DNA from: Saccostrea cucullata
Taxonomy: Eukaryota
Length of the DNA stretch: 64,000 bases
Assembly (NCBI RefSeq): GCF_032062105.1
Contig: NW_026935671.1
Coordinates: 1 to 64,000, forward strand
Direction of reading: 5' to 3'
The position numbers and the translations under genes are program-made. Below, one piece after another: positions 3,257 through 44,220 of the stretch (position 1 is its first letter; each line of letters begins with the position of its first letter). The notes beneath the pieces are model-generated. The model was not told where the DNA came from, ran no database searches, and saw nothing but the letters and a program-made list of their open reading frames with translations.

Positions 3257-4366
3257 TTACCTTAAAAATCTTGATAATATTAATTTACGAAACGATATAT
3301 GAGGCCAAAAAAGTATATAAGGATTACAAGAGAAATGCAAGATTCCAAAGAGTAAACTAGTATTGTATAAGTATACGGAATAGGTACGTGAAATAGGACT
3401 GCCTGTTGAAATAGCATATAATAAGTCGGGAAAATATAACATTATCTGAATATTAGAGCAAATAAAAAAAGAAAATATAATACAAATAATCACATTCATT
3501 CTTCTTAGGATGCTTCTTTTAATGGAAGATTTTCTTAGAGCCTTCATCTTTTTGATATGAATACCAATGATTGCAAAGATAGAAAGCAACGCCCTGCAAC
3601 TACCTAGAATACTCAATGTAATCTGAATGGCTTTCGATTGATCAATCGAATCTTCTATAATCGTTGCTATCATTATTAGTATGAAAGCTGACAAGAGTGA
3701 GCAATAGATCCAAATCATTACAGAACATGCCATAACAATCGACACAGTAAGTCTTAGTTTGCTCTGTAACGGATGGACTATTAATAAATATCTGATCAAA
3801 GCAAGGAACACAATGTGTGCAGTTGAACATGAAATAATTGTATCATCTAGAAAATAAATAGTTATAAACCCGAAAATACTTTCATTATAATGATATTGAA
3901 AAAGAAGATAAATATACAGATCGGAGAATTTCCGTACAAAAATACTGAAGATATTTAGAGTATCTGTTAATGCAAGGCATCCGATGGCAAGAAATGTTGG
4001 AGTGTGTAACCGCTTTTCGCATACAATTTTGTAGATAGTCACAATATTTCCTGCGAACCCGAGTAATCCGATTATAAATATCAGGATCGCGATTGATTTC
4101 TCGAATCCTTCCGAGGTCTCAGCAATAATTGTTGGATCAAACAAAAAGAATGAAACAGTGGAAGGGATTTCGTAATAGGATAAGTCATCATCATAAACGT
4201 TCTTTGATTTGTTCCAGCTTTTCCGAAGAGTTCCGTTCGTTGAAGACAACATTGAGGACCAAAACGAGCTATTGTAATACTGTTTTGTCTCCCCATTCAT
4301 TTCAGATGAATTCCTAATTGAGAGTTTGGATGTGTTTGCGTATGAGGATTGACAATGTTCTTTCAT
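3257..4366 (-). CDS. Class-A (rhodopsin-like) orphan GPCR, copy 1; single coding exon; likely start ATG at 4366 (MKEHCQSS)
   Basis: 7 hydrophobic segments; TM1 GNIVTI, ICL1 KRLHTPTF, TM2 LALTD, TM3 LIRY-x4-HP, TM4 W, TM7 FSCNPYIL; N-terminal N-glycosylation sequons. The extra N-terminal residues of the 411-aa track ORF lie in a predicted intron (4390-4520). The C-terminus appears frameshifted relative to the paralogues. Confidence 0.9.
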   Translation of the reverse strand: MKEHCQSSYANTSKLSIRNSSEMNGETKQYYNSSFWSSMLSSTNGTLRKSWNKSKNVYDDDLSYYEIPSTVSFFLFDPTIIAETSEGFEKSIAILIFIIGLLGFAGNIVTIYKIVCEKRLHTPTFLAIGCLALTDTLNIFSIFVRKFSDLYIYLLFQYHYNESIFGFITIYFLDDTIISCSTAHIVFLALIRYLLIVHPLQSKLRLTVSIVMACSVMIWIYCSLLSAFILIMIATIIEDSIDQSKAIQITLSILGSCRALLSIFAIIGIHIKKMKALRKSSIKRSILRRMNVIICIIFSFFICSNIQIMLYFPDLLYAISTGSPISRTYSVYLYNTSLLFGILHFSCNPYILFWPHISFRKLILSRFLR

Positions 4367-4389
4367 ATAAAACGCCCCTTCGTTACAGA

Positions 4390-4520
4390 CTGTTAAGATA
4401 ATTTCATATAAAGAGAAATGAAACATTATTATTTCTTTAAAGATAAAAATGATCAGATATTTTTCCAAAATAAAATTAAAAAGAAAAAACATTACGAAGC
4501 ATGATTTGAAATTGACATAC
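4390..4520 (-). other. Predicted 5'-UTR intron of GPCR copy 1
   Basis: Minus-strand donor AAAAG|GTATGT and acceptor TTAACAG|; equivalent intron in copies 2 and 3. Confidence 0.7.
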
Positions 4521-4617
4521 CTTTTGTTCTATGTGTTAGCGCAGAGCACACTTTATAATTTTTGTCGTAATATCGTTTGCCACTTATTGTTAGCTTTGAA
4601 AAAAAACCCAGAAGATA

Positions 4618-41161: not shown

Positions 41162-41560
41162 AAAGAAGCCTTTAAATGAACTGCAAATAAAAAAAAAAAC
41201 AATAGAAGAAAAATATCATGTCCGTTTTTCGGGTATGTTTATTTAAGCCAATCAGACTGAGGAACCAATGTTCCTTGTTTCTCATGAAAAATGTCCTATT
41301 TTAGTCTGTTCTAAATAATAATTAAACCAATGTAGTCCTTGGAAGCAGTATATCACATAACCATTCCTGTGAATACCGCATTCCATTTTTCCCTTCTTTC
41401 AAACAATCAACAAAGATTAATATGATTTCATTCATATATTATATTTATTTCATCGAAGGCGTCTCTGTAATGAAAAAAATACTTTCACTCTCATCATGTC
41501 TGAGGGAAATTATTACTTTTTTAAATTCGTAGGAATATATATTTTTCTTTAAAAACTAAG
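41162..41560. repeat. Continuation of conserved module copy D
   Basis: AAAGAAGCCTTTAAATGAACTGC...AATATCATGTCCGTTTTTCGG...CTGAGG...CTTGGAAGCAGTA...AACAATCAACAAAGAT. Confidence 0.8.
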
Positions 41561-43122
41561 TGAATATCTGGAATAAGCAGTATCTGTTTGATAAGTCGAA
41601 TGCATCAATTTTCCATTCTTAACTTTGCCATGTAAAAGACGTGTCGTAATTAAAAAGTACCACAATTATTGTAGATTTAAAAATAAGTTTATCAAATTTC
41701 ACGAGTGTTATGGAACACAAATTCTGTAATTGAAAATAAATCGAGGGAAACTAATGTTTTATTATATGATAAAGGAATATGCTATGGAAAGTAAATCTAC
41801 CTTGAACTTACAACGTATCTTTTTTTCACATTGTTTACGGTTACTCAGCAAATGTGAGGTAATAAAGAAATTTAAGGTCACCCTTTGTAATATATTCATC
41901 AACAAGGATCCAGTGGGTCATCACTTGTCATCAGTTAATAGTATATAACACCATTGATGGGTCTTATGTATTAAGTCGAAGTCTTCATTAAAACGCAGAA
42001 GTCATGTTCCCTTTTTTTAACAATCTCAATAATGGGTTTCCTGTTTTATATTTTGGAGTTTCTTTTGTTTCATTGTTTTATCATATGTTGGCTCATTAAC
42101 CTTTACTTTTACTGGGAGAATACATCCAAACACAAAAACTTGTTGTAAGTGCATTGTATCTCTTATTCCCAGGTTTATCGTCTCCAGGAATTCGTTGGGT
42201 AATTTCTAAATTCCAATATTCATTCTAGATTTCAGTAGCTTGCAAATCGTGCTACCTGTATAACATTCATAAAATTTGATAAAGCATTTCTTTACATTTT
42301 TAAATGAATTCCTGATGCACAATTTTTAGATACGTGAATCTGTTCCCACTTAATACCGGTTAGACTGAGAAACTATTGATTTCATTCCAATCCTTATAAT
42401 TTAATTTTCTTTCATTAAGTATAAAAAAATGAAGATTGCCCTACAGAAATGTCTTCGAATGGTACAAAATTTAAATGTACGTCAGACGCATCGATAACTT
42501 TTTTCACACAAGTCATTGTGAAGTACGAAACTCAATTTGCACAATACAGTATTTTTTATCCAATGAAATACCGTATCATAAACTTATAACTTTATAAGAT
42601 GATATGAAATTTATTATTCTTCATTTTTTTTTTCAAATATTTTTTTTTTTGTTCACTTACGTAATTTCTTCAACTTGTTACTTTTGATTTCCTCCTGTAA
42701 GAATGTAAGTATGTAAATGTTTTTCTGAAAGTAGCTCACTATACAAGCAAAGTAATTTAAAAATACATTAAAATTTACATTATGTTACATGAAAGGAATT
42801 ATTTGTTTTTACAGTAAAGGTAAATAGAAAACAAACACTAACAAAAATATAAAAAATGCTACATTTATTGATCAGACTCTATACAAATAAATGTTAATAG
42901 TTAAGCAATGGCGAATTCAATGTCAATATATCTAGGTGTACTTTAAACAGTCTGCATATAGGATTTAGGTTATCTACATCAAGCGTGTAGAAATGTACTT
43001 TCAAACTCAATGATTAATTTTAATACAGATTTGTAGACAATTAATTTTAAATGTATCAATCAAATCAAATTAAGGTGACTGATTGAACTGTTTACTTCTT
43101 TTAAGATTTTGATAACGTTTGT

Positions 43123-44220
43123 TTATGAAACGACCTGTGAAGCGATAAAAAGGATATAAGGATTACAAGAGAAATTTATAAGTCCAAAGAATGTAGCAAT
43201 ATCGTATGTGTATGCAAACAAGATCAAGAGAAAAGATCTCTTCGAAAAATTGAAATGTAATAGAGCAATGTAAGCAACGTTATAAAGTATGGCTGAAATT
43301 TGATAGGAAACAAAAACTGACAATATAATGGAAATAATAACATTCATTCTCTTATAAATACTGTTTGTCACAGAAGTATTTTTAAGAGCTTTCATCTTTT
43401 TGATATGTATAATAATGATTGCACAGATAGAAAGCAACCCCAAAAGAGCACGGATACTTGTAAACGTAAAATCCATGATTTTACGAACATAAAATAAATC
43501 TTTAATACTCGTTGACATTATCATTAATATGAAAGCTGAAAACAGTGAAGAATACATCCAAATCATCAGAGAGCATGCAAGAACAATTGACGCGGTAAGT
43601 CGTATCTTGCTCTGTAAGGGATGAACAGTTAATAAATATCTGATCATACAGAGGAATATCATGTGTGAACTTGAACAATTTATAAGTGTTTCACTTAAAA
43701 AATTACCAACCACATACGAAAAAGATCTTTTGTACACAAAATGTTGAATTTGAAGATAAAAAAACAAAGTCGTAAATCTGTCCACAAAAAACAAGATGAT
43801 ACTTAGAATATCAGACAAGGCAAGACAACTGAGGGCGACAAATGTCGGAGTGTGAAACTTTTTATAGCAAGAAATTGTGCAGATTGTCACGATATTTCCT
43901 ACGACACCCAATAATCCGATTATCAAAGCCAGAATCATGATTGATTTCTCAAACTCTTCTGATGTCAATTCAATAATTCTTGAATCGAATAAATGGAATG
44001 ATATTTTGTAATTGCGAAAAAAATCATAAATGTTATAATCATCATCAGAGCCATTTTTTGTTGCGTTCCCGCTTTTTTGAAGATTTCTATCCAGTGGAAA
44101 CAAGTGTGAGGTCCAGAAAGTATTACTGTAGTTTAATTCTGTTTCCTCATCAAAATGAGAAGAATTCCATGTGGTAGCTTCAGATGTAGGTACGGAAATA
44201 TCCCCTTTAAAAAGTGCCAT
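43123..44220 (-). CDS. Class-A orphan GPCR, copy 3 (365 aa)
   Basis: Intact ORF with GNIVTI, KKFHTPTF, LALSD, MIRY..VHP and FSCNPYIL; closest to copy 2 (shared LFPLDRNLQ and SEEFEKS motifs); acceptor 11 nt upstream of the ATG; AATAAA (minus strand) near 42863. Confidence 0.93.
   Translation of the reverse strand: MALFKGDISVPTSEATTWNSSHFDEETELNYSNTFWTSHLFPLDRNLQKSGNATKNGSDDDYNIYDFFRNYKISFHLFDSRIIELTSEEFEKSIMILALIIGLLGVVGNIVTICTISCYKKFHTPTFVALSCLALSDILSIILFFVDRFTTLFFYLQIQHFVYKRSFSYVVGNFLSETLINCSSSHMIFLCMIRYLLTVHPLQSKIRLTASIVLACSLMIWMYSSLFSAFILMIMSTSIKDLFYVRKIMDFTFTSIRALLGLLSICAIIIIHIKKMKALKNTSVTNSIYKRMNVIISIILSVFVSYQISAILYNVAYIALLHFNFSKRSFLLILFAYTYDIATFFGLINFSCNPYILFIASQVVS

Follow-up and report, generated by a model that had tools for sequence, protein, structure and literature searches.

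What might be detected by the receptors encoded in tandem in a 64-kb stretch of DNA from the oyster Saccostrea cucullata (hereafter the window), and could proteins with so altered an activation core still signal? An open reading frame scan of the window recovered three long minus-strand frames (3257-4528, 27571-28692 and 43123-44274), corresponding to three gene copies with pairwise identities of 46-54%. The minus-strand array of three intact paralogues and a pseudogene that had been proposed in the original prediction is real, except that the pseudogene amounts only to a 381-bp fragment spanning TM1-TM4. Likewise, the description of these genes as single-exon holds for the coding sequences but not for the genes, each of which has a predicted 5'-UTR intron of 114-131 nt directly upstream of the ATG. 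The features, all on the minus strand, are:

3257..4366, minus strand: coding sequence of copy 1 (369 aa, P0003)
4390..4520, minus strand: predicted 5'-UTR intron of copy 1 (GT..AG, 131 nt), at a position common to copies 2 and 3
15174..15528, minus strand: copy-1-like 3' flank (80% to 2835-3201)
20765..21141, minus strand: pseudogene fragment, TM1-TM4 only (381 bp, 87% nucleotide identity to copy 1, 4-bp deletion)
21244..21337, minus strand: remnant of copy-1-like upstream sequence (79% to 4881-4974)
27297..27302, minus strand: AATAAA in the conserved 3' region of copy 2
27571..28653, minus strand: coding sequence of copy 2 (360 aa, P0002; 90% identity to S. cucullata P0008)
28664..28789, minus strand: predicted 5'-UTR intron of copy 2 (126 nt)
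29714..29892, minus strand: conserved upstream element of copy 2 (72% to 44444-44630), a candidate promoter or first exon
42864..42869, minus strand: AATAAA in the conserved 3' region of copy 3
43123..44220, minus strand: coding sequence of copy 3 (365 aa, P0001; seven TM helices without helix 8 in the model)
44232..44345, minus strand: predicted 5'-UTR intron of copy 3 (114 nt)
44444..44630, minus strand: conserved upstream element of copy 3, pairing with 29714-29892
63910..63987, minus strand: copy-2-like 3' end with AATAAA (85% to 27280-27361)

The segment at 15174..15528 probably represents a 3' end that the pseudogene left stranded, or could instead be a repeat shared with the copy 1 flank, and a fifth family copy probably starts at the window edge, just past 63910..63987. 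Longer N-termini supplied via an upstream exon were ruled out, the predicted spliced frames having either a stop or no methionine directly upstream. None of 25 other window ORFs of at least 85 aa passed a Pfam cut-off, in a scan that omitted two of 30 such ORFs (one overlapping the 5' end of copy 1 and one in the pseudogene). The exact window proteins are absent from the protein collection searched.

The three copies belong to the class A (rhodopsin-like) GPCRs. Profile searches bear out this part of the original prediction: all three matched Pfam 7tm_1 (E = 1.7e-9, 2.1e-8 and 6.3e-7) and no other Pfam family, two of them scoring above the gathering threshold and copy 3 falling just below the curated cut-off (29.6 vs 30.5 bits), and none matched Srw, Srx, Srsx or 7tm_4 at E up to 1. 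In the wider family 7tm_1 was matched by 126 of 129 members, and Srsx, Srw, Srx and 7tm_4 by only 15, 10, 4 and 4 of the 129 respectively, all of them distant; an ESM Atlas query with P0008 returned generic 7tm_1 clusters only. The AlphaFold2 model of copy 3 (mean pLDDT 85) displays seven helices, an ECL2 consisting of residues 238-241 and a TM7 running straight to the C-terminus; in a scallop family member modeled likewise, a separate helix (313-331) follows TM7. The closest solved folds are class-A peptide receptors, with many ties (Z 25.9, rmsd 2.9, 259 aligned residues for 7na7_R). The N-termini, originally estimated at about 60-75 aa, measure about 87-90 aa, with TM1 starting at residue 88, N1.50 at positions 107-109 and 3-5 sequons.

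Fifteen of the 21 matches listed for copy 3 are S. cucullata paralogues (at least 15 records), and among the matches listed these are the closest relatives, with identity reaching 90%; no one-to-one orthologue in another genus occurs among them. In a 53-row tree sampled from the best search matches rather than from whole proteomes, the window copies fall inside a 14-row clade composed solely of window and S. cucullata proteins (SH-aLRT 98), in which they do not form a single clade of their own (AU p 7e-36). The S. cucullata RefSeq paralogues of this subclade (XP_062609704.1 'MSH receptor-like', XP_062620051.1 'olfactory receptor 1E16-like' and others) show 42-90% identity to the window copies and many of them end at the same C-terminus. 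Their names are automatic and arbitrary rather than statements of orthology, and orthology to the vertebrate receptors so named was ruled out, given that the labels vary among close paralogues and that hits outside the family are weak. Beyond molluscs the highest-ranking hits, to ghrelin receptors, have E values of 3.5e-6 to 1.4e-4, as against 1e-126 within the family, and no known peptide or lipid receptor of bilaterians emerged from the protein searches as a one-to-one orthologue, in keeping with the lineage-specific origin originally proposed.

The wider family reaches mussels and scallops. Its bivalve members outside oysters (the Mytilus XP_063425874.1 cluster, and Pecten, Mizuhopecten, Argopecten and Ylistrum proteins including P0094 and P0238-P0240) match the window copies in His5.58, a non-acidic, hydrophobic residue at 3.49 preceding R-Y, His3.42, a very short ECL2 and the sequences of ICL1 and ICL2, so that the first, second and last-but-one of these features are not oyster novelties. 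However, P5.50, the TM6 proline, NPxxY and helix 8 persist in the Mytilus and scallop proteins, and their tails are longer, with 54 residues following P7.50 in Pecten and Mizuhopecten and 67-70 in Mytilus. Unlike the oyster subclade, these proteins are also well conserved from species to species (four scallop species share 82-87% identity). These comparisons place the three copies as members of an oyster-expanded branch of a broader orphan bivalve class-A family. We found no description of the His5.58 family or its motifs in the mostly open-access papers searched, a search that would miss residues numbered in the style H231(5.58).

The activation core of the window copies departs widely from that of typical class-A receptors, as originally described. 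All three copies retain the anchors N1.50, D2.50, R3.50, W4.50 and P7.50 and lack P5.50 and P6.50; all three have I-R-Y in place of DRY, Leu7.53, Ser5.50 and His5.58, with no CWxP and no cysteine at the top of TM3. Thus D/E3.49, Y5.58, CWxP, Y7.53, the C3.25-ECL2 disulfide and helix 8, features which are typical but not obligatory, are found in none of them. Among 143 full-length family members His5.58 is present in 139 and an acidic 3.49 in only one, and the span from W4.50 to 5.58 is 43-52 residues compared to 64 in ghrelin receptors. The phylogenetic distribution indicates that the losses of Tyr7.53, Pro5.50 and helix 8 are derived within oyster subclades, with three changes by parsimony for Tyr7.53, although a tree uniting the non-Tyr rows in a single clade is not rejected (p-AU 0.118), so that the loss may have been either single or repeated.

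This raises the possibility that the Tyr7.53-less, tail-less subclade does not comprise ligand-switched G-protein receptors but constitutively active proteins, or scavengers, decoys or accessory subunits. Such roles, which we consider quite unlikely, would account for the joint absence of D3.49, Y5.58, Y7.53, P5.50, CWxP, the disulfide and helix 8, and a Val at 3.49 (VRY) is tied to high basal activity in ORF74 in the accessible part of PMC12462484. The mammalian GnRH1 receptor signals without helix 8 and with Asn5.58, and its activation is abolished by Y7.53A (PMC7576152); because of this, Leu7.53 could by analogy entail weak or no G-protein signaling, which weighs against chemosensation as well. 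Against these roles, R3.50, D2.50, S3.39, N7.49-P7.50, ICL1, ICL2 and the basic ends of TM5 and TM6 stay under purifying selection (omega 0.33-0.37), which fits a retained transducer interface, and the diversifying pocket implies that the identity of a ligand matters.

The C-termini of copies 2 and 3 end exactly seven residues past NPYILF, as originally noted, and the copy 3 model has no helix 8. The longer tail of copy 1 arises from a one-base shift at the T run 3307-3312, which may be real or an assembly error; its adjacent frame reads ASYIVS-stop, resembling the other two copies. We ruled out the short tail as a splice artefact, because the copies have no GT donor in common at their stops, some 250 nt of 3' sequence with AATAAA at its end is conserved between copies 2 and 3, and S. 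cucullata RefSeq proteins terminate at the same point as the short-tailed copies. The median tail length is 14 residues in proteins with Leu/Ile7.53 (n=29) vs 36 in those with Tyr (n=102), a comparison that is not independent of phylogeny and is not taken here as a sign of co-evolution. The lack of arrestin desensitisation that the original prediction drew from the short tails is putative, since Ser/Thr residues of ICL3 could take over from the missing tail.

Conservation is distributed over these receptors in the manner originally outlined, with conserved cytoplasmic loops and divergent outer parts. Over 17 clade members mean pairwise identity is 0.76-0.78 in ICL1/ICL2, 0.65-0.69 in the inner parts of TM1-3 and TM5-7 and 0.48 in inner TM4, as against 0.19-0.35 in outer TM3, ECL2, outer TM5, outer TM6, ECL3 and outer TM7. 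A custom codon model of the three copies put omega at 1.93 for 73 pocket codons (p 1e-4 against 1) and at 0.33 for 135 codons of the inner half. Restricting the pocket set to its 41 codons free of indels yielded omega 1.9 with a common synonymous rate (p 0.003), and giving the pocket its own synonymous rate yielded 2.2 (p 0.015); with both restrictions the estimate was 1.68 and not significant (p 0.21). Random-sites M1a/M2a fits were set aside, omega being unbounded. This evidence of selection comes from three sequences analyzed with a custom script, and since one indel-free test is not significant and the random-sites omega is unbounded, relaxed constraint might conceivably explain it instead. 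What the data show is fast amino-acid change in the pocket segments and purifying selection on the cytoplasmic half. Together the search hits, the tree, the decayed copy and the regional identities support the view of a tandem oyster family with birth-and-death turnover, a variable pocket and a conserved cytoplasmic face.

A pocket omega near 1.9 combined with birth-and-death turnover would fit equally well if these were receptors for non-self or mate recognition engaged in an arms race. They would then detect either microbial products, on haemocytes or on epithelia, or cues linked to spawning and gametes; receptors of either type should leave the same traces as chemosensors, and large immune-receptor expansions are reported for bivalves in the accessible portions of PMC10279657 and PMC10140915. 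We nevertheless consider this unlikely: a Pfam scan of ORFs found no immune domain or immune gene in the 64-kb window, and the literature takes such class-A expansions as chemosensory, although likewise by inference. The conserved Mytilus and scallop genes present a pattern more typical of receptors for endogenous ligands, and suggest that the oyster copies might be bivalve peptide or lipid receptors amplified under relaxed constraint from such a gene. The nearest outside hits, namely ghrelin, neuromedin-U and neurotensin receptors, and the presence of His3.42 in the ghrelin receptor as well, point in the same direction. This origin is nonetheless very improbable in our view, as identity among paralogues drops to 19-35% in the pocket segments, most tests put omega there above 1, the outside hits are weak and nearly tied, and S. 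cucullata has at least 15 records.

Based on the sequence evidence we propose, at slightly better than even confidence, that these tandem paralogues are candidate receptors for waterborne chemical cues which signal via G protein despite their stripped activation core. The ligand would enter an open pocket lined by outer TM3, TM5, TM6 and TM7, with no disulfide and with ECL2 reduced to a turn of about four residues, and because of this reduction the ordered N-terminal segment (about residues 61-87) might serve as the lid. Each paralogue would be tuned to a different ligand. In the active state R3.50, deprived of an acidic partner at 3.49, would be secured by His5.58 and not by the Tyr5.58-Tyr7.53 pair, and ICL2 together with the basic extensions of TM5 and TM6 would form the docking site for the G protein. 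Shut-off, if any, would proceed via ICL3 Ser/Thr residues or the receptor core and not via the tail. A fuller scenario, which we advance tentatively and regard as doubtful in its entirety, is that a hitherto undescribed bivalve GPCR family exchanged Tyr5.58 for His and dropped the DRY acid, after which oysters lost Tyr7.53, Pro5.50, the TM6 proline and helix 8, possibly repeatedly, during expansion into positively selected chemoreceptors. If true, these proteins would be natural minimal class-A receptors in which G-protein activation takes another route, and the graded series from scallops and mussels to the stripped oyster forms would allow a test of which switches are needed.

According to PMC11682238 the candidate chemosensory GPCRs of bivalves are still unknown, and we found no deorphanised bivalve chemoreceptor in the literature searched. 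A small, defined family with a putatively positively selected pocket offers a practical target list for settlement, predator and spawning cues in a farmed animal. The family is also of interest for how GPCRs work, as it forms a natural series: His5.58 becomes fixed, and the losses of Tyr7.53, Pro5.50 and helix 8 follow on the background of a conserved cytoplasmic face.

Among known systems, the nearest are the lophotrochozoan class-A lineage-specific expansions that Nath et al. 2025 (PMC11886862) propose, in the accessible text, as chemoreceptors, with 356 genes in S. glomerata, 155 in O. edulis and 265 in C. angulata. Calling the window family undescribed, as the original prediction did, was therefore too strong, and the surprise is limited because the general phenomenon is already in print. 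Like those expansions, the window family is class A, has tandem paralogues with truncated or pseudogene copies (three genes, one fragment and a probable fifth in 64 kb), forms a lineage cluster without one-to-one orthologues in other genera (the 14-row clade), has variable extracellular halves (identity 0.19-0.35 vs 0.65-0.78) and lacks the TM3-ECL2 disulfide. It differs in ECL2, which is a turn of about four residues in the model as opposed to the 25-30 aa described there as typical, not as a criterion, a difference that counts against the chemosensory reading. In that text no group-specific motifs beyond DRY and NPxxY are given, whereas this family is marked by His5.58, a non-acidic 3.49 and His3.42, and the subclade of the window copies has lost both named motifs; tail or helix 8 loss is not discussed ('helix 8' gives no hits). 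The sequence sets of that study are deposited at Zenodo, and five accessions and two motifs gave no hits in the portion of its supplement available, whose rows are species-level counts. Expanded, tandem, pocket-variable oyster class-A GPCRs without the disulfide are thus already known as candidate chemoreceptors, and the window copies are members of this kind with an unusual activation core. For this core, GPR88 provides a parallel in coupling to Gi without the disulfide, W6.48 or P5.50 (PMC9061749). The GnRH1 receptor likewise lacks helix 8 and a C-tail and has a non-Tyr residue at 5.58 (PMC7576152), but unlike the window copies it keeps a DRY-like motif, CWxP, P5.50 and the TM3-ECL2 disulfide and needs its Y7.53 for function; it is cited here as an analogy. 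Outside molluscs the ghrelin/neuromedin-U/neurotensin group gives the best profile and fold matches (E 7e-13 for a neurotensin receptor chain; Z about 25-26), but at 14-19% identity and in near-ties with many class-A receptors. Its members, which keep ERY, CWxP, NPxxY and the disulfide, measure 64 residues from W4.50 to 5.58 as against 51, and their ECL2 region is thus longer by about 13 residues.

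Scanning of the window for ORFs and Pfam domains recovered only three long ORFs with a match to the family, all on the minus strand, whose products match 7tm_1 and no other Pfam family and share 46-54% pairwise identity. This bears out, with some corrections, the original prediction of a tandem array of nearly tail-less, non-canonical orphan class-A GPCR genes, to which a fragmentary copy and further pieces belong:

3257-4366, minus strand: copy 1 CDS, 369 aa
27571-28653, minus strand: copy 2 CDS, 360 aa
43123-44220, minus strand: copy 3 CDS, 365 aa
20765-21141, minus strand: fourth copy, a TM1-TM4 fragment of 381 bp that has a 4-bp deletion and shares 87% identity with copy 1
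21244-21337, minus strand: copy-1-like upstream piece flanking the fragment (nucleotide comparison within the window)
15174-15528, minus strand: copy-1-like downstream piece flanking the fragment (same comparison)
63910-63987, minus strand: copy-2-like 3' end with AATAAA (same comparison)

As the dN/dS of the fragment against copy 1 is 0.28 (NG86, 123 codons), the fourth copy probably kept its function through the greater part of its history after duplication, and the 3' end at 63910-63987 probably marks a fifth receptor gene just past the window edge. Each of the three genes is predicted from sequence to carry a GT..AG intron (114-131 nt) whose 3' end lies 10-23 nt upstream of the ATG; splicing it out would add no upstream Met to the reading frame. 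An upstream element conserved at 44444-44630, 29714-29892 and about 4660-4800 ends in a TAAAGAGG motif common to the three genes and is a candidate promoter that would co-regulate them; at copy 2 the element is set apart from the gene by an insertion of about 0.8 kb. The window additionally contains several repeats:

32186-32258, minus strand: tRNA-like sequence (Rfam 41 bits; ARAGORN tRNA-???, anticodon unassignable)
24172-25424, 49063-49911 and 19456-19685, both orientations: 166-bp tandem repeat arrays
50647-50791 and 51046-51238: palindromes, one of 145 and one of 193 bp, both near-perfect and resembling hairpins or MITEs
10224-10952, 12013-13439, 23440-24074, 30371-30989, 31450-31580 and 41159-41485: dispersed repeat family of at least six pieces, 70-80% identity, no long ORF
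57618-60187: complex tandem repeats (units about 146-149, 316 and 52 bp) plus a 940-bp duplication

The tRNA-like sequence is enclosed by a dispersed repeat (31627-32561; inverted partial copy at 46514-47309) and is possibly a tRNA-derived SINE or a tRNA pseudogene, and the six-piece family is probably a non-autonomous transposon. The 166-bp unit length presumably recalls the oyster Cg170/HindIII satellite.

A search with copy 3 gave 21 matches, namely 15 proteins of Saccostrea cucullata, whose automatic names are inconsistent and some of which may be alleles, four unnamed records and two turtle ghrelin receptors (E 3.5e-6 and 1.8e-5); copy 2 is 90% identical to the S. cucullata paralogue P0008, which makes a Saccostrea the likely host. 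The family profile extends to Ostrea edulis, S. echinata and Magallana, and against 50% representatives it returned 1156 matches with E of 0.001 or below, 222 of them reaching 1e-10 and 43 reaching 1e-30; the best 150 of the 1156 were examined. Those distant members that are named come from Mytilus, C. virginica, S. cucullata and four scallops; the oyster subclade aligns with the most distant group at E 7e-37.

Of 185 aligned proteins 145 covered TM1-TM7 (40 partial ones were dropped), two being ghrelin-receptor outgroups, to which the Ballesteros-Weinstein numbering was set by alignment; canonical class-A motifs follow their textbook definitions. Position 5.58 is His in 139 of the 143 members and position 3.42 is His in 119, while position 3.49 is acidic in a single member (one gap). 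At 7.53, 102 members have Tyr, 29 have Leu/Ile and 12 have Phe. W4.50 and 5.58 lie 38-56 residues apart in the 67 members for which this was measured, as against 64 in ghrelin receptors. Based on these counts and spans, His5.58, loss of the DRY acid and a short ECL2 are defining traits of the whole family, the conserved mussel and scallop genes included. The latter retain P5.50, a TM6 proline, NPxxY and long tails. One conserved orphan His5.58 receptor (P0094, P0238-P0240 and the P0069 cluster), found in mussels and at 82-87% identity in four scallop species, has a normal NPxxY and helix 8 and is the natural point of comparison for any attempt to deorphanise the family. A second conserved branch, the P0146 group of unnamed ENA and Logan records, has LPxP in TM6 and additional Cys in the N-terminus and ECL1.

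In a quick tree of 53 rows, with trait columns left out, the window copies fall in a clade of 14 rows together with S. cucullata proteins only (SH-aLRT 98), all with Leu/Ile7.53 and without P5.50. A second Tyr-less group takes in Magallana proteins, and the Ostrea and S. echinata members retain Tyr7.53. Parsimony gives three changes at 7.53; a single origin was not rejected (p-AU 0.118) in AU tests on 43 rows, after removal of 10 distant or long-branch rows. A clade uniting the three window copies was rejected (p-AU 7e-36), each being nearer to S. cucullata proteins; the duplications therefore likely predate the split from that S. cucullata species or population.

The short tails were also considered as read-through splice donors, a reading rejected since no donor is common to the copies; counting further against it, copies 2 and 3 have about 250 nt of 3' sequence in common, ending in AATAAA, and S. 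cucullata RefSeq proteins stop at the same place. The longer tail of copy 1 is due to a T run (3307-3312, minus strand) that is one base shorter than in relatives and so shifts the frame; the neighbouring frame reads ASYIVS-stop, and the shift is either a real frameshift or an assembly/homopolymer error. At the other end the N-termini comprise about 88 aa and contain 3-5 sequons, which makes them longer than originally estimated; the remaining motif statements of that reading agreed with the alignment.

Copy 3 was modelled with AlphaFold2 from 129 sequences (pLDDT 85, pTM 0.82). In this seven-helix model the first 50-60 residues are disordered and those at about 61-87 ordered, ECL2 measures about 4 residues, and TM7 runs straight to the protein end. 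In scallop P0094, modelled as a control, TM7 is followed by a separate helix (313-331), so helix 8 is ancestral and was subsequently lost. Only class-A receptors occur among the best 50 fold matches listed, headed by near-ties of ghrelin, neurotensin and neuromedin-U receptors (Z 24.3-25.9), which place the fold and give no pointer to the ligand.

The segments lining the pocket have an identity of 0.19-0.35 among 17 clade members, compared with 0.65-0.78 for the loops ICL1 and ICL2 and for the inner halves of TM1-3 and TM5-7. With regions fixed from the model and x.50 anchors, our own codon model of the three window genes with a shared synonymous rate gave an omega of 0.33 for the inner half (135 codons) and 1.93 for the pocket (73 codons, p 1e-4 vs 1); other outer codons (0.80) and the N-terminus (1.25) were indistinguishable from 1. 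F61 frequencies left the results unchanged, and a pocket with its own rate gave 2.23 (p 0.015). For 41 indel-free pocket codons omega was 1.9 (p 0.003) under the shared rate and 1.68 (p 0.21) alone, and random-sites fits were unstable. Thus purifying selection on the inner half is firm, the robustness of the pocket result is mixed and positive selection there is likely, not settled. We somewhat favor chemoreceptors as the function of these genes; immune or mate recognition receptors are an improbable alternative, and receptors for an endogenous ligand a very unlikely one.

The window genes are of a known kind, an oyster lineage-specific class-A GPCR expansion, and the original interpretation is supported in part; such expansions were already catalogued across 238 genomes by Nath et al. 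2025 (PMC11886862). In that paper the expansions, which number 356 in S. glomerata, 155 in O. edulis and 265 in C. angulata, are arranged in tandem, with variable extracellular halves and a TM3-ECL2 disulfide that is not conserved, and chemoreception is proposed without ligand data; its Zenodo sequence sets may well contain these genes. For M. gigas PMC11682238 gives a second-hand count of 586 GPCRs. The activation core of the window genes is unusually stripped, and we found no description of the His5.58 bivalve family or its motifs in a literature search with subscription papers mostly outside its reach.

Beyond the demonstrated fold, motif losses, turnover and selection contrast, we propose that an external ligand would enter an open pocket, over which the N-terminal segment may form a cap, and that R3.50 would pair with His5.58, replacing the Tyr5.58/Tyr7.53 network (described in PMC9061749). 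The G protein would then dock on ICL2 and the basic TM5/TM6 ends, and desensitisation, if any, might proceed via ICL3. A bolder view, that the activation switch has been rewired and reduced to a minimum, is tentative and rather doubtful. Constitutive or decoy receptors are a quite unlikely alternative. Mechanistic precedents point in both directions: GnRH1R, which lacks helix 8 and has Asn5.58, signals yet requires Tyr7.53 (PMC7576152), GPR88 couples although it lacks the disulfide, W6.48 and P5.50 (PMC9061749), and in ORF74 VRY promotes basal activity (PMC12462484).
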